64,000 nt of DNA from a phage (GCA_012646185.1 GCA_012646185.1_4706.1), one strand, 5' to 3'; positions 10,185 to 39,311 are shown, counted from the first letter of the stretch. The notes: a model not told the origin generated them from the letters alone. Translations and numbers: made by a program.

Positions 10185-10208
10185 CACGTAAGTAATATAG
10201 CCGTGAAA
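10185..10208 (-). promoter_or_regulatory. early-promoter-like motif (minus-strand TTTCACGGCTATATTACTTACGTG)
   Basis: Contains TATATTAC; about 45 nt upstream of gene 9457-10143; one of four near-identical copies. Confidence 0.5.
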
Positions 10209-10287
10209 GGATTTGTGTTGGTCCGTCTCGATGCCCATCGTATTTTATGGATTGTCGAATGACGTCATTTTAAGGGACATCCCCGGC

Positions 10288-10316
10288 CTCCTCCCCAGGA
10301 AAGGTGTGGGGAGGAG
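10288..10316 (+). terminator. GC-rich stem-loop followed by T-run
   Basis: ctcctcccca...tggggaggag then ttttt on the plus strand. Confidence 0.35.
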
Positions 10317-10351
10317 TTTTTATCATACATTCTATTAAATCGAGCGCGATT

Positions 10352-12433
10352 ATGTTGGATAGAATCAATCGTTTAATGAACCGAATAACGGTTAAAAATC
10401 AGAGTAACAACACCGTGCATATCGGGGGTATCGATGCCTGGCGTCTTTCAGATGACATTCAGCGAATATGGGGTACCTCCCGATTTATGAAACATATGTT
10501 TCGTAATTTCTCTTCTAGTGGACTCAGTCTCCACAACTTTTACCTTCCCGATTTCGTTTATATTCTCGAAACGATCATCGAAGCAAAGAATACCCGTAGC
10601 AACAAACGCATGCTGAAACACCTTATTGAGGTACTGCTACAGGAAACCTGGCTGCAAAATACCACAATCGAGCAACCTGCAATCCTCGATAAAGCACGCA
10701 TGAACAAAATGCTAACGCTCTCTTTGTTCGATTATCAAGATGAGTTTATCGACATCTATAACCGTAACGTACCTAAATACCGACTGAAAGGATACGTGTG
10801 CGCGATGGGTGCTGGTGCGGGTAAAACAATCACCGCATTGGCTTTAAGCGCCGCAATGAACGTCGACGTATTTGTGGTCTGCTGTCCTAAGAACACCATG
10901 CGTTCAGCATGGCAATCCGATGTAAACAAAGCCATCGTTGACCCCGCAACAGAAACCGCGTTCTGGTCAGACACAATGCCACCATCACAGCTGCAGAAAA
11001 GCGATAAGTATTATTTTCTGCATTACGAATCGATGGGTTTATTAAACGATGTAATGATCAAGCATAAACGCACAGCGAAGCGCGTTCTTATTGTTGTTGA
11101 CGAAAGCCATAACTTCAACGACAAGAACAGCCAACGTTCCCAACGACTGGTTGATCTTGTACAGACAATGCGTCAAACCATGAATGCGGATGTGCACGTC
11201 TTGTTTATGTCGGGTACGCCTGTTAAACAAATGGGTTCTGAGATGATCCCCTGTTTAGGTTGTATCGACCCGATGTTCCAAGGACAGGTGGTCGATAGCT
11301 TCAAATCAATTTACGGTTTAACCAGCAGTCGCGCTAACGATATCCTCAGACATCGTCTTGGGTTCATGATGCATGTCGTACCTAAAGAGGCTTATCGTAA
11401 AACCCGTCCGGAAGTTCAGGACGTTTACGTGAAGCTCCCTAACGGTAGCGATTATACCATCTCAAGTATCCGCGACGACATGGCGGTATTTGTACGCGAT
11501 CGGGCGAAGTATTACAAGGATAACTGGGGGCATTACAGAAAGATTTTTGATGACGCCTTGGACTACTATCGTAAGACTATTCGTACCGATGGTGAACGTA
11601 AAGAGCTATCTCGATACGAATCGATTGTTACTCGTTTCCAGAAAGGTTACGATCCCGTCAGAGACAAAGAAGATGCGATGTTCTGCAATACGTTTGAAAA
11701 ACGAGCGATCATGCCGGTTCTTCCTTCCGATTTAAGGATCGCTTTCAAAGACGCCAAGAGCGTCATCAAGTACGTTGGGTTGAAAATTCAGGGTGAAGCG
11801 TTAGCGCGCGTTCTCGGTGCAGCCCGCATTCGGTGTCATGTCGACATGGTGGAGTACATCGACTTCGAAGGGTACATCAACAACGCTGAAGCCAAAGTGT
11901 TGATCTTCACGTCGTACGTTCAGGTGGTTGAGCGCGTCGACAACCTGCTTCGTGATGCGGGTTTCTTACCGGAACCCATTTACGGGAAGACCAACAAAAA
12001 CATCAACCAAATACTTGCTCGTCTACGCGATGATCCTGACAGCGGTCCCGCTATTGCAACATTTGATAGCTTAGCTGAAGGGGTTCCGATGCTGATGTGT
12101 AATGTCGGCCTTTTCCTGAACAACCCGTGGCGTTCATCCGATGAAATCCAAGCCATCAGCCGTCTCGATCGCGTAGGACAAACGCAGCCTGTTCGGATTT
12201 ATCGTTTCATGTTGGATACAGGAAGCGAGGGTAACGTTTCTACACGTAGCCACGAAATCATGGAGTTAAGTCGACAGCTTGTTGAAGAAATCACGGGTGT
12301 CAAATATGTTGTGAACAAGCAAGATGATGTTAACTTGCAAGAAACGTTGGCAATGGAAGGATACGACCAATACGTTACCGTAAACACCACGGAATACGAT
12401 ATTAAACCACGACCTGCGTTCTTGGAATGGTGA
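10352..12433 (+). CDS. SNF2-family SF2 helicase/ATPase
   Basis: Walker A GAGAGKT, motif II VVDESH, motif VI QAISRLDRVGQ; start placed at first ATG after the stem-loop (track ORF begins at 10304 with GTG inside the hairpin). Confidence 0.65.
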   Translation: MLDRINRLMNRITVKNQSNNTVHIGGIDAWRLSDDIQRIWGTSRFMKHMFRNFSSSGLSLHNFYLPDFVYILETIIEAKNTRSNKRMLKHLIEVLLQETWLQNTTIEQPAILDKARMNKMLTLSLFDYQDEFIDIYNRNVPKYRLKGYVCAMGAGAGKTITALALSAAMNVDVFVVCCPKNTMRSAWQSDVNKAIVDPATETAFWSDTMPPSQLQKSDKYYFLHYESMGLLNDVMIKHKRTAKRVLIVVDESHNFNDKNSQRSQRLVDLVQTMRQTMNADVHVLFMSGTPVKQMGSEMIPCLGCIDPMFQGQVVDSFKSIYGLTSSRANDILRHRLGFMMHVVPKEAYRKTRPEVQDVYVKLPNGSDYTISSIRDDMAVFVRDRAKYYKDNWGHYRKIFDDALDYYRKTIRTDGERKELSRYESIVTRFQKGYDPVRDKEDAMFCNTFEKRAIMPVLPSDLRIAFKDAKSVIKYVGLKIQGEALARVLGAARIRCHVDMVEYIDFEGYINNAEAKVLIFTSYVQVVERVDNLLRDAGFLPEPIYGKTNKNINQILARLRDDPDSGPAIATFDSLAEGVPMLMCNVGLFLNNPWRSSDEIQAISRLDRVGQTQPVRIYRFMLDTGSEGNVSTRSHEIMELSRQLVEEITGVKYVVNKQDDVNLQETLAMEGYDQYVTVNTTEYDIKPRPAFLEW

Positions 12434-12440
12434 TTAAGAA

Positions 12441-12464
12441 GCTCTGCATGATGTCAGGCAGAGC
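12441..12464 (+). terminator. stem-loop gctctgc...gcagagc
   Basis: Inverted repeat then TTTATA immediately after helicase stop. Confidence 0.4.
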
Positions 12465-12534
12465 TTTATACTTGCATTTGTTGCAACAATCGTATGACGT
12501 ATACGCGTTGTACTTATTTAATAAGGCAGAATAA

Positions 12535-13986
12535 ATGAAACTTAAACAAAGCTGGAAAGACGAACTTCTCGCGTTAGTAAATAGCAAAAACAGCTTACAG
12601 CTGACATTAGCCGACGTAAAATTTGAACTAACTGAACCGGTAAGCGAAGTGCCCGGAACGGTTGTCGTTACGATCAAACCGAACGATGATAGCCGTTACT
12701 TTAACGAGCAGTCTCTGACCTACATCCGTCGAGACATCGCTAAAAACTTCACCGGGATCCCGTTACGGGTTATCGTTAAAAATGATACCGCCGTAAGGGA
12801 TATCATCAATACGATTGCTGAACGTTACGGATTGGTATTTGACACAACCATCGACTTCCTCGAATCCGAGCTGAATAAGCAGATTACGTTCGAAGACACC
12901 GGTATTAAAGACATTACGGTTCCGGTTGCAAACACGTCTTATGTTTGGGCTGGTAATCTTCAGTTCAATATCGCTAACGATACGTTGAGCTTGATTACGA
13001 TCATCAAGCAAACCAATCTTACGAATCTGGTTTATCTGGATGGTGTTGAATCTAACACATCGGGTTCGTTACTATTAGCAACGACCTCGGTTATCGGCGA
13101 AAACGGAAATGCCGAAACAACTGAAGGTGTCCTTGACGCCGCGTACTTCCAGAATATCCTGAACGTCATGGTTCGTTATGGTGATATTACCAGCGAACAA
13201 ATGCAACAAGCAATGCAGACAATTAACGGAAGCGAAGACGCTCGTAGAGTAGAGGTGCGGTCATACGGTGACGCCGAATTACTGGTAACCACCAAGAAAG
13301 ATTGGGTTATCGGTAGCCTTAAGGGTGCTATGGTTGTTGGTCACGCTTCACCTAAACCAATCCAATACGTTCTTAAAACAAAAGGCGGCACCATTATATT
13401 GTCATTAGATGGTTGGACAAATGTCAATATCGATTGGGGTGATGGGAATAAGACGACGCAGGACTCAGGCGATAATGAATATCAGCACAATTATGCGGAC
13501 ACTACAGAACGTACGATCGTCGCTACGGGTACCCCTACCAACGTTGGAGATACAGACGTACAGCAAAGCTTCACCGGTGGTAACATCACTGAAATCGTTG
13601 ACTGGAACAACGGATTACCTAAGGCCCCATCATTACTTGCAGCGAACAGTTTAACTAAGGTTCCCGATTATATCCCGGCATACTGGACATCGTTAGAAGG
13701 TATGTTTACGCGATGCAGCGCTATTAACGACGTGAACATCACCAAATGGAACACCCGCAACGTTACTTCAATGAAGGACCTCTTCTACGGTTGCGCTACG
13801 TTCAACCAACCGATCGGTTCGTGGGATGTTTCGTCTGTTAAGAATGCAGACAATATGTTGTCTGGGTGCTTCGCGTTCAATCAGGATCTGAGTGGTTGGA
13901 CATTCCCGGCAGGCACTTCACACATCAACTACGACGCCATGACCGCCGCATGGCAGGCTGGTTATAAACCACACTTCACCGAGTAA
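12535..13986 (+). CDS. DUF285/BspA-like repeat protein (possible surface or host-interaction protein)
   Basis: 483-aa ORF; C-terminal tandem repeats MF.RC..N..I.KW.T.NVT.M..LF.GC..FNQ.I..WDVS.V.N...M..GC..FNQDLS.W. Confidence 0.6.
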   Translation: MKLKQSWKDELLALVNSKNSLQLTLADVKFELTEPVSEVPGTVVVTIKPNDDSRYFNEQSLTYIRRDIAKNFTGIPLRVIVKNDTAVRDIINTIAERYGLVFDTTIDFLESELNKQITFEDTGIKDITVPVANTSYVWAGNLQFNIANDTLSLITIIKQTNLTNLVYLDGVESNTSGSLLLATTSVIGENGNAETTEGVLDAAYFQNILNVMVRYGDITSEQMQQAMQTINGSEDARRVEVRSYGDAELLVTTKKDWVIGSLKGAMVVGHASPKPIQYVLKTKGGTIILSLDGWTNVNIDWGDGNKTTQDSGDNEYQHNYADTTERTIVATGTPTNVGDTDVQQSFTGGNITEIVDWNNGLPKAPSLLAANSLTKVPDYIPAYWTSLEGMFTRCSAINDVNITKWNTRNVTSMKDLFYGCATFNQPIGSWDVSSVKNADNMLSGCFAFNQDLSGWTFPAGTSHINYDAMTAAWQAGYKPHFTE

Positions 13987-13999
13987 AAAAAAAAAAAAA
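13985..13999. repeat. A15 homopolymer tract
   Basis: 15 consecutive A overlapping the stop codon of 12535-13986. Confidence 0.9.
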
Positions 14000-14011
14000 T
14001 AGATAGCATAT

Positions 14012-14045
14012 CTTCCTCCCTACCCATAACGGGCGGGGAGGAAGG
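14012..14045. terminator. GC-rich stem-loop between convergent genes
   Basis: cttcctccc...ggggaggaagg followed by ttt. Confidence 0.4.
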
Positions 14046-14061
14046 TTTATGTCAATTTAAC

Positions 14062-14400
14062 TTAGAACCAGAGTTCTTTCATGAAGTAGGCTTCCATATC
14101 GTAGATAAGCCACTCGTCAGGGATTTCTAAAGGATCGTCTTCGGTTAAGGTCAGCATGTGCAGGGCGAACGCACGCTTAATATCGTTCAGCAGTTTCTCG
14201 TCGTCGTAACCTTCGGGTAGTTTACGGTCTACCAGCTGGGTTTGTTTATAGACGTCGCGGAATGCTTCAGGGCTGTGTTTGTCCATCGGAAATTGTTCAG
14301 CAGCCTGAACCATAGAAAGCGTCCAGCTTACAACATTGTAACGCTCACCATTAATTTCACTGAACTGATCATCGATTAAACAGATTTGTTGTACGTTCAT
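14062..14400 (-). CDS. hypothetical protein
   Basis: 112-aa ORF. Confidence 0.45.
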   Translation of the reverse strand: MNVQQICLIDDQFSEINGERYNVVSWTLSMVQAAEQFPMDKHSPEAFRDVYKQTQLVDRKLPEGYDDEKLLNDIKRAFALHMLTLTEDDPLEIPDEWLIYDMEAYFMKELWF

Positions 14401-15290
14401 TCATTTTCTCCATTCTTATCTTGGTCGCAATCACACTCTTCGACGTCTTTCTTACTTAAACGTAAGACACCGAGTGCGGCATGCTTGAGTTCTTGCAACG
14501 CGCTTTTCAGCTGACCTTCTTCATCGAAATCAAAATACTTCTCGTTGTAGCTTAATGCTGGAATCATATTTACGAGAGGTTCGATGGCGGGCATCAGCAT
14601 TTCAATGACGACCTTAGGATCAACAAAGCGTTCAAACCCTTCAGGAAGTTTGCTCGCTACAACCTTATCGTTTTTGATGTAGAATTTGTTCTTGAACAGA
14701 TCGTCAAGAATAGCGTTCTCTTCATCCGTACGTTTTGCGTGAGGACGATCGATCATCTGTACAAACACACCATTCAACGCTTCAGGCAACGTCGGATTTT
14801 CACGAAGATAAGTTCCAGCCGGAATTTCAATATCGATCTTCGTCCACTCAACAACCTGGTGGTCTCGTGTGTAGATGACGTCAACTTCCCACGCCAGGCC
14901 ATCAGCGCTTTCTACGGTGTAACGTGTTTTCGCCTGGCCTTCAGGAGCCATGCGTTCGATCGCGTCAAACATCTCGACTGGAATTTCGACTTCGCTTTCC
15001 GTTGCATCACCTGGACCACGATACACCTTCGTGGTCATGATGTATTTCGGCTCTTCGTTATCGATCTGGATCGCACGTGCGCGCACCTGACCTTTCACAC
15101 CACCAACGGCTGTGTTATCAAACAACCATTGATGTTGCACCATATGTTCGATTTTTGATGCGACTTGACGAAGACGTTCAACACCGTCTTCAGCCAGTTT
15201 ACCAAAGAAGACCAGCTCACGTTCCTGCTGTGTCTCACCACTTAACATCATTAAATTGGCGATTTGTTTCACGCCTCTTACTTGTGACAT
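14397..15290 (-). CDS. hypothetical protein
   Basis: 297-aa ORF. Confidence 0.5.
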   Translation of the reverse strand: MSQVRGVKQIANLMMLSGETQQERELVFFGKLAEDGVERLRQVASKIEHMVQHQWLFDNTAVGGVKGQVRARAIQIDNEEPKYIMTTKVYRGPGDATESEVEIPVEMFDAIERMAPEGQAKTRYTVESADGLAWEVDVIYTRDHQVVEWTKIDIEIPAGTYLRENPTLPEALNGVFVQMIDRPHAKRTDEENAILDDLFKNKFYIKNDKVVASKLPEGFERFVDPKVVIEMLMPAIEPLVNMIPALSYNEKYFDFDEEGQLKSALQELKHAALGVLRLSKKDVEECDCDQDKNGENE

Positions 15291-15358
15291 ACATGCTCCG
15301 GTTATAAGGGCCTACATCGAGGCCCCTCATTGATTTTTGATTCCACCAAACGCTATCG

Positions 15359-16933
15359 TTACAATTCAAAATCTTCATCGATAACACGCTGGGTAAGCAC
15401 TTTGTCGCTGAAGAACTCCACCTTGCGCTGATGGTATTTACGGTGCGCTTCGATAGAAGTACATACCAGATACCAGAACGTTGGCGTCATTCCTTCAAAC
15501 TTCCCTTTCAGCTGACGCAGTCGCCCCAACACCTGAATGTTGCCGGTTCGTGACCCCATCGCTAACGTCATGAACGTCATCACCAAGTCAGGGAGGTCGA
15601 TACCTGTACCTGCCGATTTCACCGTCGTAACGCTAATATCGTTATCCAGCAAGACCATGAAATCTTCTTCAGCAGTATAAGGACCGATCTCTAGCTCAGG
15701 AATACGCTCACTGAGATAGTGCGACAACGACTTACACATATCAACGGTTGCACAATACACCAGCATCTTCATGCCTTCCTGATACTGGTTCATGAAACCT
15801 TTGATGATAACGGTATAGATGAAGTTAAAATACGCGAGTTTGAGTTGCTTGTTCTTCATGATAGACTGTTCGAATATCGTGTGTGAATAAGCTCCGCCAA
15901 ACCCTTTGTATCTGACTTTATCTGTACTGCGTAGTCGATATGTTACCGCATTTACCGCAATATATTTCTTGTATTCGCCTTTTGCATAACGGGCTTCTTT
16001 CGGATACATCAAATACAACATCTGTTCGATAAACGGATCATCGGACACCGCCGTTGCCGACAGATAAATGATTTCCGGAATACTGGCGTAACACTTGACC
16101 TTAAACAAGAAATGCAATGCTTCGTGACACTCGTCATGAATCAGCAAACCTATGCCGGTCTTTTCCCAAAACTCAGCGGGATGAAAGGCATATGGCGCAA
16201 CGCAGTTATTCTTCTCGTAGTCCGCAATATAACGTTGGAACATGTTCAAGGAGAACAATGCGATTTTGAAGTCGAGCTCACCTTGTTCAACCAAGGTTTG
16301 AAACTCCAGCATGCTGTAACGAGGAATGTCGGGATGTGGTGGATCCTCCTTAGCGTTCCCGCGTATCTCAATAACGTCCCCTGGTTCCATCCCGAAGAAG
16401 TTCAGCAGTGAGCTTCGCCAACCTGGCATGTATCTCGGCGACAGAATGATACCCGTCCGTACACCACGTCGGAAGGTAATCTCCTGCGACATGGCCGTTT
16501 TTCCTGACCCCGTTTGAGCGGTGTTTAGGCTCATTCTGAAGGGGGTATCCTTACCCCCGTCCATGTACTCCAACCATTCTTGCTGATCTTGACGCCATGG
16601 AAACTTCCATTTCTTTACGAACTCCACTTCTTTACCTGGTACCGGATCGTGATAGACGATTTCCAACCACTCTTTTCGTATCCCTCGGGAAAAGATAAAA
16701 TCCAAAAACGATTTCAACTGTTCACGGAGTAAGTATACCTCGCTATAATCGCTTCTCGCCGCGGCATACGTGTTTATGGTATCGGTAACCATTCTCCGTG
16801 TACGAGGGTCACGCCGTTTCCTCAGATGCAAACAACGGTCTCGAAGGTAATGGCCTATCAAATGGGCAAATCGAAGTCCGTATCCGCTCAGCCTCATGCC
16901 ATGCGAGAAGACGTCGATACGAGCTAACTTCAT
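15359..16933 (-). CDS. SF2 DExH-box helicase
   Basis: 524-aa ORF; Walker A AQTGSGKT, motif II IHDECHE, SAT, motif VI QVLGRLRQ. Confidence 0.65.
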   Translation of the reverse strand: MKLARIDVFSHGMRLSGYGLRFAHLIGHYLRDRCLHLRKRRDPRTRRMVTDTINTYAAARSDYSEVYLLREQLKSFLDFIFSRGIRKEWLEIVYHDPVPGKEVEFVKKWKFPWRQDQQEWLEYMDGGKDTPFRMSLNTAQTGSGKTAMSQEITFRRGVRTGIILSPRYMPGWRSSLLNFFGMEPGDVIEIRGNAKEDPPHPDIPRYSMLEFQTLVEQGELDFKIALFSLNMFQRYIADYEKNNCVAPYAFHPAEFWEKTGIGLLIHDECHEALHFLFKVKCYASIPEIIYLSATAVSDDPFIEQMLYLMYPKEARYAKGEYKKYIAVNAVTYRLRSTDKVRYKGFGGAYSHTIFEQSIMKNKQLKLAYFNFIYTVIIKGFMNQYQEGMKMLVYCATVDMCKSLSHYLSERIPELEIGPYTAEEDFMVLLDNDISVTTVKSAGTGIDLPDLVMTFMTLAMGSRTGNIQVLGRLRQLKGKFEGMTPTFWYLVCTSIEAHRKYHQRKVEFFSDKVLTQRVIDEDFEL

Positions 16934-18936
16934 AACGTGATTACATCCTCCGGTTTAGGTTCTTTACGCGGTAACAGCATGTAGTCGATCGGATGATCTG
17001 GCTTCATGGTTGGGATATAACTGTTCGGGTTTTGGAACGCATCCAGTTGCTCTTGGTGAGCGAACTTCATACTCAAGGAGCGCATGTTCATGTTCTTCTT
17101 GAAGGTACTGAAGTATCGTGTTGTTCCCTGTTTCGGCATGCGATAATCTTTCGTGTGCGGCGAACGAATCATGCTGGCGTAGAGAATAACATCGAGATGC
17201 GAAAGGTTCATTCGCAGACGCTGAGCGCACAGACGATGCCAATAGTACAGCACGTTTGCAACTTCTTCCGGCGTTGCTTCGTCTTCCGAGAGGAATCCGG
17301 CACTGAAAGAACCTTTCCCGAATTTGAACTCACGTTCGATTTCTTTTGCGTATTCCATCATGTTTTTGTGGATTAACGGCATCTGGAATAACGTACGTGA
17401 ATTGTCCCAATGTTTCAAGTCGAAAATCACAATCCCGTCAGGCGTCACTTCCCAGCTATGGCGTTTAAGATAACGGATAAACGCTTTACTCGGTACAACA
17501 GGACGACCGCAGAAATCGAAATTGACTTTGAGCTTACGATAGCTTTCATCTTTCCTGTCGTAAATCTCCATATCGCAAAGCGTCATGTTGAACAGACGCT
17601 GTGGTATCAGCGAACTGATTTCTTCCGCTTCGGCTACGTCGTACAACATGTTAGCAAGACCTAACTTCATCTTAATCAACACGTGTTTACCTTTCAGCTC
17701 ACGTGCGAGTTTGATGTCGTTCATGTTCTGGCTGTAGCGAAGGATATGCTGATATTCCGGTGGGATTGGTGCTGTAGAGACCGTTGACGAACCATCGTGG
17801 TGTTTGGTAGAAAGAATGTTCTGCGTTACCTGTTGCGAGCAGGTACGCGCTGCACCATCGCCGACATTATCAGTCAATGCGAAGTTATGACTTAATTCAC
17901 CGTAACACGTTGTACATACCCCAGCAGGATCGGGATGATGACAATAGTTAACGGAGCGCATGCGTACCGTCGTGCCGATCAATTCTTTCATGTGTGGTTG
18001 TATCGCTACCAACGAACCGTCGTCACGAATAATGAATCGACCGTGGAAACCACGCAGGTCGGTCTCATCGCGGATTGGCATCGGGATGGTCTCTTTACTA
18101 CCACAATCACCAGGATGAAGTCGTTGTACAACCGCTGTCGCTATCTGAAGTTCACGACCGAAATATTCAGACTTTTTAATCTGCTCTTTGTTGAACAGCA
18201 ACGATTTCGCCGCAGAACGACTTTCTTTCAAGCTGTCAGGAAGAGAGATCAAACCGGCTGCGTACGACCGCATTACCGGATCGCGGAATATCTCGGAGTT
18301 AATATCAGTCAAGAATCCACGCATCCCAATACACTGTAGCACCTGCCCAATCGAAACGTGTTCGGTTCTTACCGCACGTGCGATAGGGTTTGCATGTAAC
18401 GTTTTATCGGTGCTCAGTACCTTCGTCAGTTTCTTGTATGCGCTTTCAATGCCTTCGCGGGTGGGTTCCGCTTCGGCGATGATTTTCTTAACTTCGGGGT
18501 GTACAGTAATCTGATAAAAATCATCCGCGCAAATCGTTGTTACGTATTCCTCCAACGCATACGTAAAGAAGTTATATACATTGTTAAACATATCGAACAG
18601 TGCTTTCCAGAGAACCTCACGATTCTCTTGTGGATAAGCATACATGCATTGACGATACGCTGCGCTTTGCAACGCAACCGATGAACCCGCTGTGAACTTG
18701 CGTTTATCGACCAGGTTCTCTTTTGTCAATGGTGTCTCAGGATACATGCGATGTACAGACCAGTGCATGTAACTAAAGAAAATGCGTCGCGCACGTAATT
18801 CATGAACGCCATCGTCCATCTCGATATATACACGGTCATTAGGCTGTGCCCATTCGAACACCTCATCAACCGGCCAATGCATAAGCTCGCGTGCCCTCAC
18901 ACGACGTTTCGTGGTGGTTGTCTGTGTTGTAATCAT
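16930..18936 (-). CDS. multisubunit RNA polymerase beta-prime, C-terminal fragment
   Basis: 668-aa ORF; VRMRSVNYCHHPDPAGVCTTCYGEL...GDGAARTCSQQVTQNILSTKHHDGS matches the conserved beta-prime region RS...C...GVC..CYG...GEA.G..AAQSIGEPGTQ.TMRTFH.GG. Confidence 0.6.
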   Translation of the reverse strand: MITTQTTTTKRRVRARELMHWPVDEVFEWAQPNDRVYIEMDDGVHELRARRIFFSYMHWSVHRMYPETPLTKENLVDKRKFTAGSSVALQSAAYRQCMYAYPQENREVLWKALFDMFNNVYNFFTYALEEYVTTICADDFYQITVHPEVKKIIAEAEPTREGIESAYKKLTKVLSTDKTLHANPIARAVRTEHVSIGQVLQCIGMRGFLTDINSEIFRDPVMRSYAAGLISLPDSLKESRSAAKSLLFNKEQIKKSEYFGRELQIATAVVQRLHPGDCGSKETIPMPIRDETDLRGFHGRFIIRDDGSLVAIQPHMKELIGTTVRMRSVNYCHHPDPAGVCTTCYGELSHNFALTDNVGDGAARTCSQQVTQNILSTKHHDGSSTVSTAPIPPEYQHILRYSQNMNDIKLARELKGKHVLIKMKLGLANMLYDVAEAEEISSLIPQRLFNMTLCDMEIYDRKDESYRKLKVNFDFCGRPVVPSKAFIRYLKRHSWEVTPDGIVIFDLKHWDNSRTLFQMPLIHKNMMEYAKEIEREFKFGKGSFSAGFLSEDEATPEEVANVLYYWHRLCAQRLRMNLSHLDVILYASMIRSPHTKDYRMPKQGTTRYFSTFKKNMNMRSLSMKFAHQEQLDAFQNPNSYIPTMKPDHPIDYMLLPRKEPKPEDVITL

Positions 18937-19081
18937 TATTACTTTCCGATTTAAATGGTTTTATCATACGGTTTACCAATTCCGTTGGAATTTACTATCA
19001 TCATGATAGCATCGGGAATCCCTTCTCTTAGGTTATGTAGGTGTTAATATATCTCCACTGCCGGAGTAAAAGTCGGCAACA

Positions 19082-19567: not shown

Positions 19568-19681
19568 AATCTCATTTCCTCTTCTACGTAGAAATAGATG
19601 ACATGTTGGATATACGTTGCCTTTGCATATATTGCTTTATTTCCGTCAGAAATAACGGAAAATAAAAACAACGACATAATT

Positions 19682-19711
19682 CCCTCCCACCTCCACATGG
19701 GAGAGGGAGGG
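19682..19711 (-). terminator. GC-rich stem-loop ccctccc...gggaggg
   Basis: Inverted repeat downstream of gene 19725-20087. Confidence 0.4.
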
Positions 19712-19724
19712 TTATTCGTGTTTA

Positions 19725-20087: not shown

Positions 20088-20119
20088 TATGTTTTCCTCA
20101 GGTGAATGTTAGCAATCGT

Positions 20120-20545: not shown

Positions 20546-20585
20546 CCTCCTCCCACCACATGGGCAGGAGGAGGCGTAATATGCA

Positions 20586-23561: not shown

Positions 23562-23626
23562 GATAACCCTCCCACAGCGTAAAGCGTAGGGAGGGCATTT
23601 ATGCCGTCGTTCGATGACTTAATACA

Positions 23627-26550: not shown

Positions 26551-28137
26551 TTATTTTTTTCCTCTTAAATTTACTACGTGTTCATTTAATCGAACAACTA
26601 ATTGCACAAGCTGCTGACGGATATCTGCTGGACAAAGCATCAATCCTTTACGGTCAGCTGGGACTTTCTCAAGGATTTCCGGGCCTGCTGCTGAAACATC
26701 CCAGTCCCATTCACAAAACGCATCGGCCACCATGTTAATACCGACAACCGGTAAAGTTGTACGTTCATCTTCATACATGGCGTGTGGATACAATTTATTG
26801 ACAGTAATGATCTCCTGTGGTTTTAATTGGTGGATAATCTGATAAACATCGTCGCGTTTGACCTGGATACCTACGGTCAGCGCTGCCAGTTGAGGAAAAC
26901 CCCAATGGTCTAATAAGCAAGCTGCAATCGCTAACGCTTTTGCTTGATGCACGGCTTCAATCGGTGCCAGACTTCTCGCCGGAAGATGGCTATCAAGCAA
27001 CCATTGTGCCAGTGCTCGGCATCCACGGTTGATTGGTTTTAACTCAACGGTGTCATCATGTTTAGCGTACGTGTATCCGTCGTAACGTTTTGCGATACGC
27101 GCATACATGTCTTCAACTTTACCGTAAGGTGCCGTTTCGTCGACGTCGTGCAACACACGTTCCATCTGGGTAAGATACGCGATATCAAGAATGAGTACAC
27201 GCGGTGAACGTTTATCTTTCACCATCAACGCATCAATCACGCCTTGACTGTCTTCATCTTGCGCGTTCCCTCGTGGGGTTTTCTCACGAATCGGTCCGCT
27301 GAAACGTCGTTCCGTACAAAGGTTATTCACATAGCTAAAGATCAGTGTTACCAGATGCGTACAACTCACCAACACCCCATCTTTAACGACAGGCTGTACG
27401 GCTTGGTCCAAGTCGCGTACGGCGAGACGGCGGACGATGGCTTGTGAACGCAACCAGCCGGGCACTTTCTCCGTCGACATGTAATCCACGGTCATCGACA
27501 GCGTGATCTTTTTATCACCCGTCTGTGCGCGGATATAGTCTTCCAGTCGGTCGTAAGCGGCGATATCGTGAATGCGTGTTTTATACATCAACGACATAGC
27601 CACTTCTTCTTTACGAACCGTTCCGTACGTTTTCCCTGCGTCAATCAGAAACTCTGCCCAAATCGGCACCATCAGACGGACGTAGATCGCTAACGCCGTT
27701 AACTCAACGTAATCATTTCGTAAATAGGTTTTCTCAGGAATATCATCCTCACCTAATGTTGTTTTCATGTCCGGCGGTAATTTTACCCAACCCGGGGTAT
27801 TACACAACGCCAGAATCTCTTCGTACACAACCGGTTTGTAAATTTCACCAACAGCGCGACTCAACTCCTCCATTTGTTGTTGTGGAGCAATGTAGTTATC
27901 CATCGCTTCACGTGCTTTAACGAACCCTTCGAAGATGTCGTCAATTCGACGTGGGTTCTTTTGTTCTATCCAGGCGAGATACTTGTTAATCTCCCGCATC
28001 TGATTGCTAGCCATATCCCCATCAATCTTGATGTAACCCTGACCTGAAAATTCCACAGTACGTCCATCACGGTGTTTGATGAGATAGTGATCCAGCTTTT
28101 CTTTTCCTTGCGTCGTAATGACGGGCACTATGTGCAT
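26551..28137 (-). CDS. hypothetical protein
   Basis: Start moved to internal ATG (MHIVPVITTQ); the Arg-rich N-terminal extension in the track looks non-coding; early-promoter-like motif about 60 nt upstream. Confidence 0.5.
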   Translation of the reverse strand: MHIVPVITTQGKEKLDHYLIKHRDGRTVEFSGQGYIKIDGDMASNQMREINKYLAWIEQKNPRRIDDIFEGFVKAREAMDNYIAPQQQMEELSRAVGEIYKPVVYEEILALCNTPGWVKLPPDMKTTLGEDDIPEKTYLRNDYVELTALAIYVRLMVPIWAEFLIDAGKTYGTVRKEEVAMSLMYKTRIHDIAAYDRLEDYIRAQTGDKKITLSMTVDYMSTEKVPGWLRSQAIVRRLAVRDLDQAVQPVVKDGVLVSCTHLVTLIFSYVNNLCTERRFSGPIREKTPRGNAQDEDSQGVIDALMVKDKRSPRVLILDIAYLTQMERVLHDVDETAPYGKVEDMYARIAKRYDGYTYAKHDDTVELKPINRGCRALAQWLLDSHLPARSLAPIEAVHQAKALAIAACLLDHWGFPQLAALTVGIQVKRDDVYQIIHQLKPQEIITVNKLYPHAMYEDERTTLPVVGINMVADAFCEWDWDVSAAGPEILEKVPADRKGLMLCPADIRQQLVQLVVRLNEHVVNLRGKK

Positions 28138-28186
28138 AACAACCTCTTTTCGCGGTTCCCTGTTAAAACGTCTTCTGTGACGTCTA

Positions 28187-28213
28187 CCACAAAGGTAATA
28201 TAAGCGTGAATAA
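28187..28213 (-). promoter_or_regulatory. early-promoter-like motif (minus-strand ...TTATTCACGCTTATATTACCTTTGTGG)
   Basis: Contains TATATTAC; upstream of gene 26551-28137. Confidence 0.5.
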
Positions 28214-28341
28214 TTTTGGATTCCGGCTGAGTTATCGCTCAGCATGCAAGGCATCCCGCCGAAGCGAGACACCTTGCACTAACGGAAAATATTCGCGTTA
28301 CCTTCTGAATCGAAGACTCAGAATGCGATGCTAAAGCGTTA

Positions 28342-32333: not shown

Positions 32334-32346
32334 GAGGAACTCCTCT

Positions 32347-32796: not shown

Positions 32797-32914
32797 CCCG
32801 TTCTCCTCAAGCTTTTCATTTCATAGAGTGGTGGAAATTCGTAGAAAGTTACAAAAATAAAAAAGAATGGGCAGCCCCTCCCCACCCGAAGGTAGGGAGA
32901 GACCGCAAATATAC

Positions 32915-33379
32915 TTAAACCAAAGCTGCGATAACGTCGTTAACATTACGGCCTCGCAACTCTGCCGCTAAACGAATAACTTCATCCAGGGAACGGTTTG
33001 TACGAATCTTGGCCACTTTCCAATTTTCAGGATACTGTTCGAAGTTAAGCAACCAAGTCATTACCTTTGCTTGTTCCATACCGTTGAGTTTGATTGTCGT
33101 GCGCGGATTGGCTTTGAACCACTTCTTGCTCAGCTGCGCCATACGGCGAACAGGGTAAGCGTAAGCGCGAGTCCAGTCTTTGGACAGATTGTCGAGTAAT
33201 TCACAGTAGCTGTTGTCGTAGTCTTTGTTGATACGACGTAATAACCAGTTGGCGGTCATCTGATAAAGTTTATCATCTTCACGTAACCGCATACCTGCTA
33301 CTGCTAAATAAATGATAAGACCTGCGCCCAGGATGAGAGACAGGATAAACAGAATTTGGGTTTCTTGTGCTAAAGTCAT
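32915..33379 (-). CDS. membrane-anchored protein (single N-terminal TM helix)
   Basis: 154-aa ORF; hydrophobic stretch ILFILSLILGAGLIIYLAVAG; early-promoter-like motif about 90 nt upstream. Confidence 0.5.
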   Translation of the reverse strand: MTLAQETQILFILSLILGAGLIIYLAVAGMRLREDDKLYQMTANWLLRRINKDYDNSYCELLDNLSKDWTRAYAYPVRRMAQLSKKWFKANPRTTIKLNGMEQAKVMTWLLNFEQYPENWKVAKIRTNRSLDEVIRLAAELRGRNVNDVIAALV

Positions 33380-33463
33380 TTTACTATCCTCGGATTTCGT
33401 TAGGATTTAATTTCCAATATAAGGACAATGTGATATGCCTTATACAGTCGATTGATGTTGTAC

Positions 33464-33490
33464 ATCACTTAAGTAATATAGCCGTGAAAA
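33464..33490 (-). promoter_or_regulatory. early-promoter-like motif (minus-strand TTTTTCACGGCTATATTACTTAAGTG)
   Basis: Contains TATATTAC; near-identical to the copy at 10185-10208. Confidence 0.5.
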
Positions 33491-33498
33491 ATGTTGGA

Positions 33499-34335
33499 TT
33501 AACGTGTTCTCCTATCACGATGCGTATACGACTGAAGACCGATGTCCATATGCGGTAACGTCAGCGTCTGCCAGATCTGTCGTGCGTAGCGATCGAGCGT
33601 ATGATCGTCAGTAACACAATCGACGGGTTCGATGAGGTGGGTCGTATACTGGCTTTTCTCGGAGAAAGGTTCGAGGTTAGCTGTATCGCCTAATCCGCTT
33701 TTCACTGTGAAGACAAGACGTGTGACTATCATCGCTTTATGTTGCTGTTCATTATAACGAAGGCTGCGGTATACGGCATAGCTCCCTCCTTTTAGGCTTC
33801 GGGTATAACGAAGGTCGGAGGTCGTCTCGGAAATCTGATACAGCATCCAGTCCAACGTATCACGCCAGTACGCATCATCCACATCAGGAACCGTGATACC
33901 GTATCGCGTAGGCAGCAATTCTAAAAGCAATTTATAAAGTCCGCGACGCAGACCATGCTCTTCTGTTTCCGATAAACCGTTTCCAACGTAACGTGAAATA
34001 CGTGTACGTAAATACGTACGGATGAACATATTCGCCATCAAGGTCTTCACTCTGCTACTGGTATCCTCAAAGCGATCAACGCTGAAACTCGTTTCAATCA
34101 GTCGTCCATTAAAATACAATGCGGCAACATACATCGCGTTATTACTATCACGTTCAATGTTTAAACGTCCGCAGATATTGGCTGCGTCGTTCATGGTGAA
34201 TTCTAATTTATCGTGTTCGATACGATAGATAATATCCTCTTGGGTTGCCAGGCTCGCAATGCGACGGTAGCCCGGAGAAGTACGTTTTACACTCATGATT
34301 GTCCTCGTTTTCAATTTTAAGATTGCATGCGGCAT
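33499..34335 (-). CDS. hypothetical protein
   Basis: 278-aa ORF. Confidence 0.5.
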   Translation of the reverse strand: MPHAILKLKTRTIMSVKRTSPGYRRIASLATQEDIIYRIEHDKLEFTMNDAANICGRLNIERDSNNAMYVAALYFNGRLIETSFSVDRFEDTSSRVKTLMANMFIRTYLRTRISRYVGNGLSETEEHGLRRGLYKLLLELLPTRYGITVPDVDDAYWRDTLDWMLYQISETTSDLRYTRSLKGGSYAVYRSLRYNEQQHKAMIVTRLVFTVKSGLGDTANLEPFSEKSQYTTHLIEPVDCVTDDHTLDRYARQIWQTLTLPHMDIGLQSYTHRDRRTR

Positions 34336-34378
34336 AAACCCTCCCCGCCTTATGCAGGGAGGGCAGCCATTAAATGGA

Positions 34379-35017
34379 TTAACCTAATTTACCACCGGCA
34401 ATGTTGGTGAAATCTTCGCCATCAGGAACTTGCAGTAGGATACGTGCCATGTCCCAGTTGGTTAATGTAATTGCTTTATCATCGATACTCAGTTCTGGTA
34501 GGTCGAGTTCATGATCATCAAACTCGTAGGAAATACTCCACGTTTCATCTGTTTTAGGATCGGTTATCAACACACCGTCTGTTACACGCATGTAGTCCGG
34601 ATGCAATTCATTACTGAATGTGCTGAACGGATCGGTGTAACATTCAGCATACCCCTCGATCTGCTGACGTTGCGCCTTCGTACGTAATTCAGGGCACGCC
34701 ATAATCAGTTGTCGAGATATGCCGTTTGCAGCACGGAAGTCTTCCACGGTGTTGCATGGCATAACCACATCGTCATGGAAGATGTTCTCCGATTGTCTCA
34801 ACAGCGTCTTACGGAGTTCAGCATAGTTTATCTGATTGAATGCGTCGAACGTTGCTAACGATTCAGCGTAAAAATGCTTTACGTGTTCGCTTGCACTGCC
34901 GAGGCTATTCATCAGCTTGTGGCCGTACTCCATAAAGCTTTTATCGAGACCGGAGGACATTTCTCCGAACCTCAGTGCACGATAACTGTCTCGTCCACCT
35001 GTAAATATTTGCGCCAT
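34379..35017 (-). CDS. hypothetical protein
   Basis: 212-aa ORF directly downstream of the beta-prime exons. Confidence 0.5.
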   Translation of the reverse strand: MAQIFTGGRDSYRALRFGEMSSGLDKSFMEYGHKLMNSLGSASEHVKHFYAESLATFDAFNQINYAELRKTLLRQSENIFHDDVVMPCNTVEDFRAANGISRQLIMACPELRTKAQRQQIEGYAECYTDPFSTFSNELHPDYMRVTDGVLITDPKTDETWSISYEFDDHELDLPELSIDDKAITLTNWDMARILLQVPDGEDFTNIAGGKLG

Positions 35018-35032
35018 TACAGGCGTCCTCCT

Positions 35033-35257
35033 TTAGCAATGGTTGTTAGTTGCTTCTATTTCATCAAGATACGGTTCTACGTCATCGCCCTCCACGAATT
35101 CGTTGAACCAACAGTCAATGGTAGAAATAACCGGTGACTGGTGTTCACATTTCTTAGATACCTTAAAAGGCACGTTATTATCCATCATACCGAGTTCGGG
35201 TCGAAAACGCCCGAAATGTTTCGCAGTCCAAATGTCTGGGACGATATGGTTGTTCAT
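35033..35257 (-). CDS. RNA polymerase beta-prime N-terminal subunit, exon 3 (proposed)
   Basis: Encodes MNNHIVPD...GMMDNN, matching the beta-prime sequence that follows NADFDGD (MAVHVP / MNLHVP, then LMMSTNN); exact 5' boundary uncertain. Confidence 0.5.
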   Translation of the reverse strand: MNNHIVPDIWTAKHFGRFRPELGMMDNNVPFKVSKKCEHQSPVISTIDCWFNEFVEGDDVEPYLDEIEATNNHC

Positions 35258-35617
35258 CAAAATCTTCAGTATGAATCGCTACTTCATACCCGCAGCATTA
35301 CCTGCAGCTCCTGGTGTTACCAGGATGTTGAGAGTATATCATGCCCATATTCCAAATGGAACGTAGGACTTCCGCGCTGGATCTCGCTTGAGACCACTTA
35401 CTCGTTGAACGTTCTCCTAAACGGAGCTTCGCTGCTGATTGGACATTGTTACGTACGGTAGGCGTCCCATTAAAGGGATTTTCATTGAAGCCGCGTACAT
35501 CCGTTACCTTGTTTCTACCTTATCGGTTCCTCTTACGAGGCGTAACGGCTTTAGCCTATTCCAGCAATTCACGGAATGCATATTCTCCTTTTCAGGAGAT
35601 AAGGCCATGGCTCTGGC
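35258..35617 (-). ncRNA. putative self-splicing intron 1 (ORF-less, group I-like), boundaries approximate
   Basis: About 360-nt hairpin-rich sequence between DFDGD codons and resumption of beta-prime homology; tandem relative of intron 2. Confidence 0.5.
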
Positions 35618-35632
35618 ATCACCGTCAAAGTC
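35618..35632 (-). CDS. RNA polymerase beta-prime micro-exon encoding DFDGD (proposed)
   Basis: Minus-strand codons GAC TTT GAC GGT GAT; flanked by the two intron copies; exon 1 ends ...GYNA. Confidence 0.5.
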
Positions 35633-35982
35633 CACATATCTTCAGTATGAATCGCTACTTCATACCCGCAGCATTACCTGCAGCTCCTGGTGTTACCAGG
35701 ACGGAGAGATCATCTCATCACCCACGAAGGGTGTTCCGCGCTACCCTCAGCGAATTCGAGGGACATGATCGTTGAACCTTCCACCGATAATCGGTGGCTA
35801 GGCTGCTGATTAAACATTGTACGTTGGGGTGGCATCCTGGTTCAGGACTGTCGTTGAAGCCTCCCAACATCCACTCACTTATTTCCGCCTTATCGGCTCC
35901 CATAAGGGCAGAGTGGCTTTAGCCCGTCTCAGCAATTCACGGAATTCAAGCTCTTCCTTTCAGAAGGCAGGGCCTCATCTGA
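35633..35982 (-). ncRNA. putative self-splicing intron 2 (ORF-less, group I-like), boundaries approximate
   Basis: Follows the codon for Ala of ...KGYNA (exon ends in U); RNA ends in G just before GAC of DFDGD; track ORF reads 17 codons into it then stops. Confidence 0.5.
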
Positions 35983-37233
35983 AGCATTGTATCCCTTAAG
36001 GATCATCACGCTTAACCCGATGGTGTTATCCTGCGGATCGCGTTTAACCTTGGTGATTTCAAGACATTGGTTACTGCTTCGGTCAAGTGATGGGTTTCGA
36101 ACAAAGCCGCACACAATCCCATCGAACGGCGTATCAGCAATAAGCTCATCGTGCAGCTCGCTCATCATCGGATGATAATTACGGACATGTTCCGCAACGA
36201 ACGCACGCGCTGCTCTCGGTGAGTAACCACGATGGAATAACTTGGATTGGATATGTTCTTTATTGGTTAAAGTAAATGGTGCGTATGGGAAATGCAGATG
36301 ATAATAACGATGGTTCGCTGTTATCGAACTGATTACGGTACGCGTGGTGAATGGATGTAATGTACCTAATATGTTTTTACGTGTAATACCTTTCTTCTTA
36401 CCGATGAACTCATCGAAAATCGCTGCGTGGTATTGCAGTAGCTTCAATTGCACTTTCGCCATCCAGTTTTCTTTCTTTCTGGCGCTCAAAGGTGTTGTTG
36501 GATGATAGATACTGTTCAACGTACCAATAGCATCGATCGCACCTTCCATTTTGCTATCCGCATAACGACCGGTCGGCGTATTTTCGATAACGAACATCAT
36601 GGCTGCAGGAAAGCTGATATACTGACTGAAGAACTTATCACGATGGATACGGATGAATTCTCGTAGCGTGTCAACTTTCTCCATGTTCTTCGGTCCACGT
36701 AACGTCGGTCCTTTATACAAGATCTCCATGATGCGATCGAAGTTCTGTATAAAGCTATTTACGCCACGCCGTATCCCGAATACATCGAATTGCTGCTCCA
36801 GATAGTTCTTGAGTTCGATGGGTCGTTTTACATTTGGACGGTAACTGGCATCAATGAGCCACGTCATCGTTTCAAAGCTTTTGATATTCAACTCGCTTGC
36901 CAGCACGAGATGGACCAACGGGTTAATGAACGCATCGATTCCTTCAGGAACGCGCGCCCAAACCGTCGAACGAATCTCTTGTTCTGCTGGGTAGGTTACA
37001 ACCGTTTTACAGTTTGGACACACCGTGCCGAGTAGCTCACCACGATTGTAGAAACCACAACCACATTGTGGTGTGATATCCAACGTATCGCTGGAGTAAA
37101 CACGGGTGATAAAACTGTTTAATTTCTTCTTCTCTTCGACGACTTTTGTATCGTAATCATTCAACAAAATCGGCGTGAAAGGAAGTTCTGCGAGCTGTCT
37201 ATCGAAACTCACGATATCGAGCATGATGGCCAT
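35983..37233 (-). CDS. RNA polymerase beta-prime N-terminal subunit, exon 1
   Basis: Zn-finger CGCGFYNRGELLGTVCPNCKTVV (compare CxCGKY...C..CGVEV); NPSLDRSS (compare NRQPSLHK / NRAPTLHR); IGLSVMILKGYNA (compare LNLSVTSPYNA) immediately before the missing DFDGD. Confidence 0.65.
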
Positions 37234-37275
37234 GGGGTATCTCCTACAAATGAAAAAGAACGTTAGGACGTATAA

Positions 37276-37299
37276 GGGAGGGAGGTTGCCCTCCCTCCC
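37276..37299 (-). terminator. GC-rich stem-loop gggagggagg-ttgc-cctccctccc between chimallin candidate and beta-prime gene
   Basis: Perfect 10-bp inverted repeat. Confidence 0.45.
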
Positions 37300-37325
37300 G
37301 TCAGATTACATCGAACGTTCTTCCA

Positions 37326-39221
37326 TTAGAACAGGTTGAATGCCCCACCCATGTTGTTAACGCCAACATTCGGACGATCGCTACGTGCGTAGATGTTACC
37401 GGAGATGTTACCCAGACCACGAGCACGTGCTGCCATGTTACCACGAACAGCGGTACCTGCCAGATGCTGGATGTTCTCAGGACGGATGGTGAAGCCAGCA
37501 TCAGCCGCAGCTTCGATCAGCGCCTGCAGTGCTAACGGATCGAAGTCGTAACGCATTGCCCAGCCGGTTTGTTCCCAGCTACCAGACAGAACACGATCGA
37601 TGATTTCGTGACGAGCGACAACACGCTGAGACATCGTCATATCGGTACGGTCGAAGCTGTCTTCCCAAGCTTCTACGGTATCCGGGTTAGTGATGTTCAT
37701 CATGTACAGATCGTCCATATCACGAATATCGTGACGGTGACCATCCTGGTGGTTGTAGTAACCCAGCGGGATACGGTTACCGGTAGCGTAGACCAGCGGT
37801 TGGCCGTATTGATATTTCTTGCTGAAGCAACCCAGGGTAGTATCATCGAAGGCACGGTAAAGTGCTTTGTAGCCTTCAGAGACTTCCTGAACTTTACCTT
37901 CAACATTACCCGTATAGATCTTCTCAGCCGCCGGGATCATACGCAGCAGCCAGCTGTATTCGCCTTCTTCCGGTACGTCGATAGAAATCAGCAGAGACGG
38001 ATACAGAACCTGTTGCAGGAACTTGTAAATCTGCTCGTTGGTTTGCGTAGACAGATCCAGCGGTGCAGTCACTTCAGGATCCAGCACCATCGCCAGAGCA
38101 CCTGGGTTATGCGGACCAATACCACGAGCCGCGTTGCTGATTAAAGACTGTGCCCATGCCATGCCGCTGTTCAGCGTAGCGATGGTACCAATCAGACCCA
38201 GCACGAAGCTGTTCGGTGTGAACGCATCCAGCTCCAGCGGGTAAGCGCTGGTCATCACGTAACGCGGCTGGTATTGTACAGTCGGCGGTACCGGATAGCC
38301 GTTAACCAGAACAGGGCCTTGGTTGAAGGTCGGGTTCTGCGGGCTGTAGGTCAGGTCGATGTAACCGGTGGTGGCGACCAGACGCTGTTGACTATCGTAA
38401 TCGCTCATCGCTTGACGGATGCGGTTAGAGATAGTTACAGTGATGTCAGAACGCACAGGGTTACCAACAATATCACTGTCCTGCATACCGCTGGTGTTGT
38501 ACTGAACGCTGCTGATTGGCTGATCGCTTGCCATCATGCCCAGGTTGAACTGCGGCAGACCCAGTTTATCACCGAGACGGATTTCGATTGCGGTCTGGAT
38601 TGCGTTATCTGCAGCAGACAGCAGGGTGGTTGCCAGATGCGCAGATTCAGCGGTGATTTCATTGGTCACCACAGCCAGACCAGCGATACGAACAGTACCG
38701 TTAGACTTACCGCCAATAGCTGAATACATTGCCGCCATGACTTCGTTGATGAACGTACCGTTCAGGTTATCAACCCAGGTACGCGGTACCAGAATGTTAC
38801 CATGCGGACCTTGTTCTTCACGACGCGGCAGCGGAGCCAGACCAGCAACCAGCGGCAGGACGTAACCGAAGAAGTGGTTATGATCACCAACTTTTGCACC
38901 GCTCATAACAACCAGGGTCGGATACGGTACGCTGTACTGGTTCGGGTCAACCGCAACAAAGATGAAGTCGTCTTTGAACTGGGTATCTTCCAGATATTTC
39001 TCCATCAGACGACGGAGATTCAGTACCTGCTCGGAGCCGGTATTACGGCTGATACGACGGCTCAGTGTACGGTTGATCGTACGCATCGTATGAGTTACTT
39101 TAGGACGGTCGGCAAAATCTGCAGCGGTTTCCAGCGCCTCATCAGCACGTTGTGCGGTGCGGGTTTCAGCTGCACGAATTTCTACATTATCGTTACCGTT
39201 ATTACGTACGTCTAAGCCCAT
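37326..39221 (-). CDS. chmA: candidate phage-nucleus shell protein (chimallin); alternative is a major virion structural protein
   Basis: 631-aa ORF directly upstream of the beta-prime N-terminal gene (same order as phiKZ gp54-gp55); early-promoter motif 70 nt upstream; extended charged N-terminal tail. Confidence 0.45.
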   Translation of the reverse strand: MGLDVRNNGNDNVEIRAAETRTAQRADEALETAADFADRPKVTHTMRTINRTLSRRISRNTGSEQVLNLRRLMEKYLEDTQFKDDFIFVAVDPNQYSVPYPTLVVMSGAKVGDHNHFFGYVLPLVAGLAPLPRREEQGPHGNILVPRTWVDNLNGTFINEVMAAMYSAIGGKSNGTVRIAGLAVVTNEITAESAHLATTLLSAADNAIQTAIEIRLGDKLGLPQFNLGMMASDQPISSVQYNTSGMQDSDIVGNPVRSDITVTISNRIRQAMSDYDSQQRLVATTGYIDLTYSPQNPTFNQGPVLVNGYPVPPTVQYQPRYVMTSAYPLELDAFTPNSFVLGLIGTIATLNSGMAWAQSLISNAARGIGPHNPGALAMVLDPEVTAPLDLSTQTNEQIYKFLQQVLYPSLLISIDVPEEGEYSWLLRMIPAAEKIYTGNVEGKVQEVSEGYKALYRAFDDTTLGCFSKKYQYGQPLVYATGNRIPLGYYNHQDGHRHDIRDMDDLYMMNITNPDTVEAWEDSFDRTDMTMSQRVVARHEIIDRVLSGSWEQTGWAMRYDFDPLALQALIEAAADAGFTIRPENIQHLAGTAVRGNMAARARGLGNISGNIYARSDRPNVGVNNMGGAFNLF

Positions 39222-39283
39222 TTGGGATTCCTCTTTTCTTAAACTTTATTAAATGACGTCATTGAATCAGCTTCTACTCGCTC

Positions 39284-39311
39284 ATTCACCTAGGTAATAT
39301 AACCCTGAAAT
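39284..39311 (-). promoter_or_regulatory. early-promoter-like motif (minus-strand ATTTCAGGGTTATATTACCTAGGTG)
   Basis: Contains TATATTAC; upstream of 37326-39221; palindrome AATGACGTCATT at 39252-39263 in the leader. Confidence 0.5.

Follow-up and report, generated by a model that had tools for sequence, protein, structure and literature searches.

A phiKZ-type early promoter motif at four predicted promoters of a Goslar-like jumbo phage, including that of the phage nucleus shell gene

Introduction

Jumbo phages that encode their own RNA polymerases carry a conserved AT-rich motif near position -10 before their early operons, and this motif is read by a virion polymerase that is injected with the DNA (PMC7598289). 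Here we analyze a 64-kb stretch of phage DNA (64,000 nucleotides, GCA_012646185.1; "the window" throughout), in which an earlier note had pointed to four near-identical minus-strand copies of an element containing TATATTAC and had read them as phiKZ-like early promoters. Our analysis indicates that these four sites are very probably early promoters of the phiKZ type, read by an injected, virion-packaged multisubunit RNA polymerase (vRNAP).

The phiKZ-type early promoter signal is already well described, and the present work extends a known promoter class to another genus. In phiKZ, the core is defined as an element of ~8-10 nt, highly conserved, AT-rich and centred near -10 (PMC7598289), and the early promoters of phiKZ and 201phi2-1 are conserved at -10, -20 and -30 (PMC11512511). 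In phiKZ, 28-32 early promoter sites have been located by RNA-seq, primer extension and differential RNA-seq (Ceyssens 2014, as cited in later papers; Wicke 2021, PMC8244752). The primary start site of PHIKZ054 carries the early promoter motif by differential RNA-seq (PMC8244752), and gp124 of 201phi2-1 has an experimentally mapped promoter with the early motif (PMC11512511); the PhiPA3 annotation equates this gp124 with phiKZ gp068. Transcription in phiKZ and phiR1-37 starts 6 nt downstream of the consensus element, and the early promoters of AR9 have the form AAATATATATTAT-(6N)-G+1 (PMC5312081). The genes transcribed by the vRNAP include chmA and those of the non-virion polymerase (PMC12908238). 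PHIKZ068, the fifth subunit of the phiKZ non-virion RNA polymerase, is reported to be structurally sigma-like, and no sigma-factor homologue is known for these phage polymerases.

The closest relative of the window is Escherichia phage vB_EcoM_Goslar (NC_048170), a 237-kb nucleus-forming jumbo phage, to which a 4-kb probe of the window is 97.8% identical. The region at 132.7-197.6 kb of Goslar is the counterpart of the whole window, with 94-97% identity and two segments replaced. Goslar virions carry the vRNAP subunit gp196, and Goslar chmA belongs to the early programme and is expressed from a vRNAP-containing infection vesicle (bioRxiv 10.1101/2023.09.20.558163). Our literature search found no published Goslar promoter motif, and the Goslar GenBank record annotates terminators and no promoters.

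Results

Exact copies of TATATTAC occur only four times in the window, at 10192-10199, 28195-28202, 33473-33480 and 39294-39301, all on the minus strand. The count of this 8-mer by itself is not significant (2.56 expected, with 26 of 100 shuffles reaching four). When the extended 23-nt degenerate consensus TTCASGSYTATATTACYTNNGTG was searched allowing up to three mismatches, the same four sites alone were recovered against 0.02 expected, and no shuffle reached four, confirming the copies described in the earlier note. All four cores are intergenic in a region where intergenic DNA makes up 6.9% of the sequence (P ~2e-5 before strand is counted), and all four sites are co-oriented with the next gene. 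At sites 1-4, the start codon lies 42, 50-51, 85-87 and 63-66 nt beyond the motif's 3' edge, close to the 45-90 nt given previously. An unbiased count of the 7- and 8-mers common to intergenic segments returned two recurrent families, namely TATATTAC, with every one of its four occurrences in the 64 kb being intergenic, and hairpins with CCCTCCC/GGGAGGG arms.

We scored the window with a cross-phage matrix made from 22 training sites in phiKZ, Eowyn, RAY, SA002, RSL2 and PhiPA3, which contains no Goslar sequence. The four highest scores in the window (38.0, 36.1, 24.0 and 23.5) are the same four sites, and this ranking by a Goslar-free matrix supports their reading as phiKZ-like early promoters. 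The maximum scores of 100 first-order Markov simulations of the window averaged 6.6, and the highest was 19.1. The four predicted promoters are as follows.

10183-10221, minus strand: predicted early promoter P(gp159) (site 1), spanning -36 to +3, core TATATTAC (10192-10199), +1 predicted at the G of position 10185, leader of 42 nt before the start codon (ATG, 10143), matrix score 24.0; minus-strand sequence TTTCACGGCTATATTACTTACGTGAG
28186-28224, minus strand: predicted early promoter P(gp175, PHIKZ068 homologue) (site 2), core 28195-28202, +1 predicted at the G of position 28188, leader of 51 nt before the start codon (ATG, 28137), matrix score 23.5; minus-strand sequence TATTCACGCTTATATTACCTTTGTGG
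33464-33502, minus strand: predicted early promoter P(gp182) (site 3), core 33473-33480, +1 predicted at the G of position 33466, leader of 87 nt before the start codon (ATG, 33379), matrix score 36.1; minus-strand sequence TTTCACGGCTATATTACTTAAGTGAT
39285-39323, minus strand: predicted early promoter P(chmA) (site 4), core 39294-39301, +1 predicted at the G of position 39287, leader of 66 nt before the start codon (ATG, 39221), matrix score 38.0; minus-strand sequence TTTCAGGGTTATATTACCTAGGTGAA

Examination of the aligned sites demonstrated that the element is longer than its core, with conservation reaching to about -36. It consists of an A/T block at about -34 to -26 (AAT..AAAA), a -20 block, TTTCACGNC, at -23 to -15, and a -10 block, TA(T/C)ATTAC, at -14 to -7, followed by six less-conserved bases ending in (G)T and then by an invariant G. 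The aligned Goslar sites give tAaT.cAaaAaaTTTCACG.CTA(T/C)ATTACCTA.gTGA (~38 nt), and the consensus of an alignment of 39 sites is A.T..Aaaa..TTT.A...cTATATTAC. The motif therefore does extend beyond the core, as the earlier note had proposed with a consensus of ~24 nt; its true length is ~38 nt, and the extension is not new in kind, because the published phiKZ and 201phi2-1 logos already span -10, -20 and -30.

The G seven bases past the core is present at all four window sites and at 39 of the 39 aligned sites. Based on this invariance, and on the start geometry published for phiKZ, phiR1-37 and AR9, we predict that transcription starts at this G, at 10185, 28188, 33466 and 39287; the equivalent Goslar positions are 142786, 160777, 166055 and 172964.

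The comparison DNA comprised 80 kb from phiKZ and, for each of six other phages, 24-42 kb surrounding the gene of the shell protein, such that phiKZ, PhiPA3, Eowyn, RAY, SA002, RSL2 and LucasX could be compared at gene positions. The first 50 kb of phiKZ contains seven exact copies of TATATTAC, all seven on the gene strand and upstream of a gene, including one copy 80 nt before gp054, the shell protein gene; the next 30 kb contains three further sites, one of them directly before PHIKZ068. All ten have the extended motif and lie on the gene strand, so the core that the earlier note had given for phiKZ is genuine. Before chmA, the motif is TATATTAC in the window, phiKZ, Eowyn, RAY, SA002 and RSL2, and TATATCAC in PhiPA3; the motif is likewise present before the PHIKZ068 homologue in the window, phiKZ, PhiPA3, Eowyn, SA002 and RAY. 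The chmA promoters of the window and phiKZ (gp054) match at 31 of 41 bases, while the proteins they precede are ~25% identical. The core is not universal, because 41 kb around chmA of the Xanthomonas phage LucasX (55% G+C) contains neither TATATTAC nor TACATTAC. The best matrix match there, TATAATAC, suggests from its sequence that the core may be shifted in high-G+C lineages.

Distant jumbo phage contigs from metagenomes, at 33-51% G+C, also contain the extended motif, including TTCACG. In IMG/VR, five contigs of uncultivated jumbo phages (142-229 kb) carry it as TTTCACGTCTATATTACTTGGGTGA or an A/T-richer version. The proteins of these five contigs are only 25-47% identical to those of Goslar, and one contig has 33% G+C.

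A genome-wide scan, for which the full Goslar genome was put together from six annotated stretches and the matrix was made from Goslar sites, identified 12 strong sites, all 12 on the minus strand, with scores running from 57 to 29 and then falling to 12. Eight of the 12 have TATATTAC and four have TACATTAC. The only two exact copies of TATATTAC in Goslar that lack the flanking blocks are inside the annotated genes gp003 and gp201, and these have background scores. One of the strong sites, at Goslar 49732, falls within an annotated 62-aa open reading frame (ORF), gp047 (49584-49772), and precedes gp046; gp047 may have been called spuriously, and otherwise the promoter is embedded in a small gene.

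The four genes downstream of the window sites are as follows.

9457-10143, minus strand: HD-domain phosphohydrolase, homologue of Goslar gp159 (Pfam HD, E = 5e-8; Goslar annotation)
26551-28137, minus strand: PHIKZ068 homologue, non-virion RNA polymerase fifth subunit (PDB 7ogp_B and 9rjs_B)
32915-33379, minus strand: 154-aa protein with one strongly hydrophobic N-terminal segment, homologue of Goslar gp182
37326-39221, minus strand: chimallin (ChmA), the phage nucleus shell protein (Pfam Chimallin_Phikzvirus, E = 4.6e-27)

These assignments agree with the downstream genes named by the earlier note, with the HD domain and chimallin confirmed by Pfam and the proposed membrane protein at 32915-33379 having a mean Kyte-Doolittle hydropathy of 2.79 over residues 9-27; a Pfam search with this last product returned no match. 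The product of 26551-28137 matches both PHIKZ068 structures (E = 5e-28 to 6e-28) over residues 23-518, nearly its full length, and is 25% identical to PhiPA3 gp062 (E = 4e-34). The window ChmA is 97.9% identical to that of Goslar. In terms of placement, P(gp159) is located in a 208-nt divergent intergenic gap, and the 5' end of P(gp182) adjoins the stop codon of the gene upstream; over ~40 nt, P(gp182) is almost identical to the Goslar site at 2567.

In a mechanical ORF list, the PHIKZ068 homologue begins at a GTG at 28272, which adds window 28138-28272 to the gene and engulfs the promoter. The ATG at 28137, which follows AAAAGAGG, agrees with the Goslar annotation, and with this start the promoter is intergenic.

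Discussion

The motif, strand, placement and target genes of the four sites fit published vRNAP promoters. The polymerase that reads them, the exact +1 and the early timing in this phage are assigned by homology with the mapped systems, and on timing and starts the earlier reading was overstated. In the mechanism we propose, the vRNAP would enter with the DNA and read the ~38-nt tripartite element on the coding (minus) strand, and transcription would start at the invariant G, giving transcripts with leaders of 42-87 nt. The first units would then encode ChmA, the PHIKZ068-like non-virion polymerase subunit, the HD-domain hydrolase and the small membrane-anchored protein. These targets fit the known logic of infection, in which chmA and the non-virion polymerase are the first products that the virion polymerase expresses (PMC12908238).

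Of the described systems, phiKZ is the most similar, sharing the TATATTAC core, the T-rich -20 and A-rich -30 blocks, the TG at -1/+1, the intergenic co-oriented placement, and chmA/gp054 and gp068 as targets. It differs in its -20 block, which is TTTAAACAG or TTTGAGAT, whereas the -20 block of the window and Goslar contains G and C; Goslar also differs from phiKZ in using the TACATTAC variant at a third of its strong sites (4/12), in having fewer sites (12-14), all on a single strand, and in that its starts are predicted. The 201phi2-1 early promoters have an AT-rich motif ~10 bp before the start, and the gp124 promoter mapped by ONT-cappable-seq corresponds to window 28186-28224 (PMC11512511); this phage has another host and belongs to another genus, and the comparison is with its published description, in which only 6 to 8 sites are reported. 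AR9 shares a TATATTA core with an initiating G after six further bases, together with an injected multisubunit virion polymerase that acts without new protein synthesis (PMC5312081). AR9 does not form a nucleus and has uracil-containing DNA, and its promoters have T rather than C as the last core base and a purely A/T upstream flank.

We considered whether the sites are instead read by the non-virion polymerase, as middle-class promoters, or serve in both the early and the middle class, and are not purely vRNAP promoters. PHIKZ054 in phiKZ has both early and middle start sites (PMC8244752), the published putative middle motif AAAATTACC and the Goslar TA(T/C)ATTACC have TTACC in common, and Goslar chmA transcripts are present all through infection (bioRxiv 10.1101/2023.09.20.558163). 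However, the full tripartite motif with its invariant G is that of the early class, whereas the motif of the middle class is weak, of the A-rich/TACT type, and has its centre at about -22 to -24 (PMC7598289, PMC8244752). One of the targets encodes a subunit of the non-virion polymerase itself, which is needed before that enzyme exists, and when the nucleus is blocked chmA is still expressed at near-normal levels from the vesicle carrying the virion polymerase (bioRxiv 10.1101/2023.09.20.558163). Taken together, we regard this explanation as improbable, although chmA, like PHIKZ054, may also have a middle start.

Use of the sites by the host, with E. coli RNA polymerase taking TATATT as a sigma-70 -10 element as in T4-like early promoters, is more improbable again. 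Like the sigma-70 extended -10 promoters and T4 early promoters, the window sites have a -10-like element that is rich in A/T and similarly distant from the start; TATATT agrees with TATAAT at five of six positions, and a weak -35-like hexamer, TTAATC, is present 16 nt upstream at some sites. We reject this reading on the basis that none of the four sites matched a -35/-10 scan with hexamers 16-18 nt apart. The window sites also have extra conserved positions beside the core and at the start, and the most conserved of these, TTCACGNC abutting the core, the C at -7 and the TG at -1/+1, are not sigma-70 elements. In addition, the motif is retained in phages of Pseudomonas, Ralstonia, Erwinia, Klebsiella and Salmonella ranging from 37% to 51% G+C, phiKZ development is independent of host RNA polymerase (PMC7598289), and Goslar brings its virion polymerase in beside its DNA (bioRxiv 10.1101/2023.09.20.558163).

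A structured DNA or RNA signal formed by the TCAC(G)...(C)GTGA inverted repeat on either side of the core, i.e., an N4-like extruded hairpin promoter or the operator of a dimeric regulator, is scarcely credible and was rejected, since, although the Goslar TCAC (-21 to -18) is complementary to GTGA (-2 to +2) and the site at 10185-10208 has a 5-bp dyad, the complementarity matches the expectation for independent columns with no compensatory pattern (per-pair shuffle P 0.05 to 1.0, the two nominal values near 0.05 among 21 tests not being significant once corrected), a hairpin would have a 13-15 nt loop that includes the most conserved block, and in phages of other genera -20 is C at only 11 of 27 sites, so that the dyad is lost there.

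Several observations weigh against reading the four sites as vRNAP early promoters. First, Goslar has 12-14 sites compared with the 28-32 of phiKZ, yet 175 of 249 Goslar genes are detected at 5 minutes, and therefore either long read-through units or unrecognised promoter variants must exist. Second, the published "TSS" (transcription start site) display for Goslar chmA begins 91 nt before the ATG (window 39312), which is inside the promoter as we define it and 25 nt upstream of the predicted +1; read literally, this conflicts with the phiKZ geometry. Third, the vRNAP genes are located outside the window-equivalent region in Goslar, and their presence in this phage is assumed from its ~97% identity to Goslar. 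Fourth, the gene for the beta' subunit of the non-virion polymerase (35929-37233) lacks its own motif and lies behind a terminator-like hairpin. Finally, in a footprinting set of Goslar-like genomes (Goslar and two IMG/VR contigs, 96-98% identical) changes within the motif occurred only at the degenerate -6 and -3 positions, and these genomes are too alike for selective conservation of the motif to show.

The sites, read as vRNAP early promoters, leave current understanding unchanged, with the promoter class conserved at the same gene positions across the family. They provide a promoter map, open to testing, for a phage of the Goslar type, on which most is built in E. coli as a model of the phage nucleus and the infection vesicle. 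The map consists of four strong and two weak sites in the window and twelve strong sites in Goslar, with predicted starts and leader lengths. This map could be used for annotation, for knock-down and reporter design, and as a source of a native early promoter for engineering, where the phiKZ consensus promoter has already been employed.

The phages that carry the element have shell proteins only ~25% identical and genomes of 33% to 51% G+C. We advance tentatively, at somewhat below an even chance, the broader proposal that the tripartite TATATTAC-(6N)-G element is near-invariant across nucleus-forming jumbo phages and held before chmA and the gp68-like subunit. If this were true, conservation would be much stronger in the cis-element than in the proteins under its control, which would imply that the virion polymerase has a tightly constrained, uncharacterised module for promoter recognition. 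The element could then serve to predict early genes universally and as a portable early promoter in phage engineering, and the -20 block TTCACGNC of the Goslar lineage, with its G and C, would be a mark of co-evolution with the recognition module in that lineage.

Weak candidates and other features of the window

Our scan also identified two weaker matches in the window.

19023-19061, minus strand: weak candidate promoter, core TACATAAC at 19032-19039, predicted +1 at 19025, score 13.7
53946-53984, minus strand: weak candidate promoter, absent from the earlier note, core TACATTAC at 53955-53962, predicted +1 at 53948, score 11.7

Both are intergenic and co-oriented with the next gene. The first precedes, by 89 nt, a beta-like RNA polymerase gene (16930-18936), which by gene order is presumably the counterpart of phiKZ gp074, a non-virion polymerase subunit, and the second is 25 nt upstream of a gene of unknown function (53372-53923). 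We retain the matches at 19039 and 53962 only as weak candidates, because their scores lie inside the null range (mean 6.6, maximum 19.1). Three weaker variants had been proposed earlier. The one near 19049 gains some support, with a better register at 19032-19039; the two at 46520-46540 (TATATTTTAAC) and 63463-63475 (AATATTAC) were rejected, as both lack the flanking blocks and fall outside the 16 best-scoring positions of the cross-phage matrix.

The second recurrent intergenic family consists of hairpins with G/C-rich arms, CCCTCCC-loop-GGGAGGG or the reverse arm order.

~8371-8395, 19682-19711, 23567-23595, 34339-34363, 37272-37299 and 40574-40618: G/C-rich-arm hairpin family

In at least one case, that of the hairpin separating chmA from the beta' gene, TTAT comes next on the coding strand. 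The hairpins resemble the conserved phiKZ intrinsic terminator motif quoted in PMC10914365, and their sequence suggests that transcription units may be punctuated by a terminator followed by a promoter.

Window 2950-3662 (713 nt), in the 5' part of an exoribonuclease gene (2330-3655), has no Goslar alignment at megablast level, and its Goslar counterpart is 650 nt. From the sequence, this looks like a replaced N-terminal region of the exoribonuclease gene.

The region of the beta' gene also differs from Goslar. At 168165-169660, Goslar has the HNH homing endonuclease gp186 and an annotated group I intron after the first beta' exon. In the window, 35262-35992 (minus strand) has 406 nt replacing these 1496 nt, with no endonuclease ORF, and contains two tandem copies of ~370 nt with sub-threshold group I intron matches (27.4 and 23.1 bits; gathering score 50). 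A relative in IMG/VR has the same endonuclease-free form.

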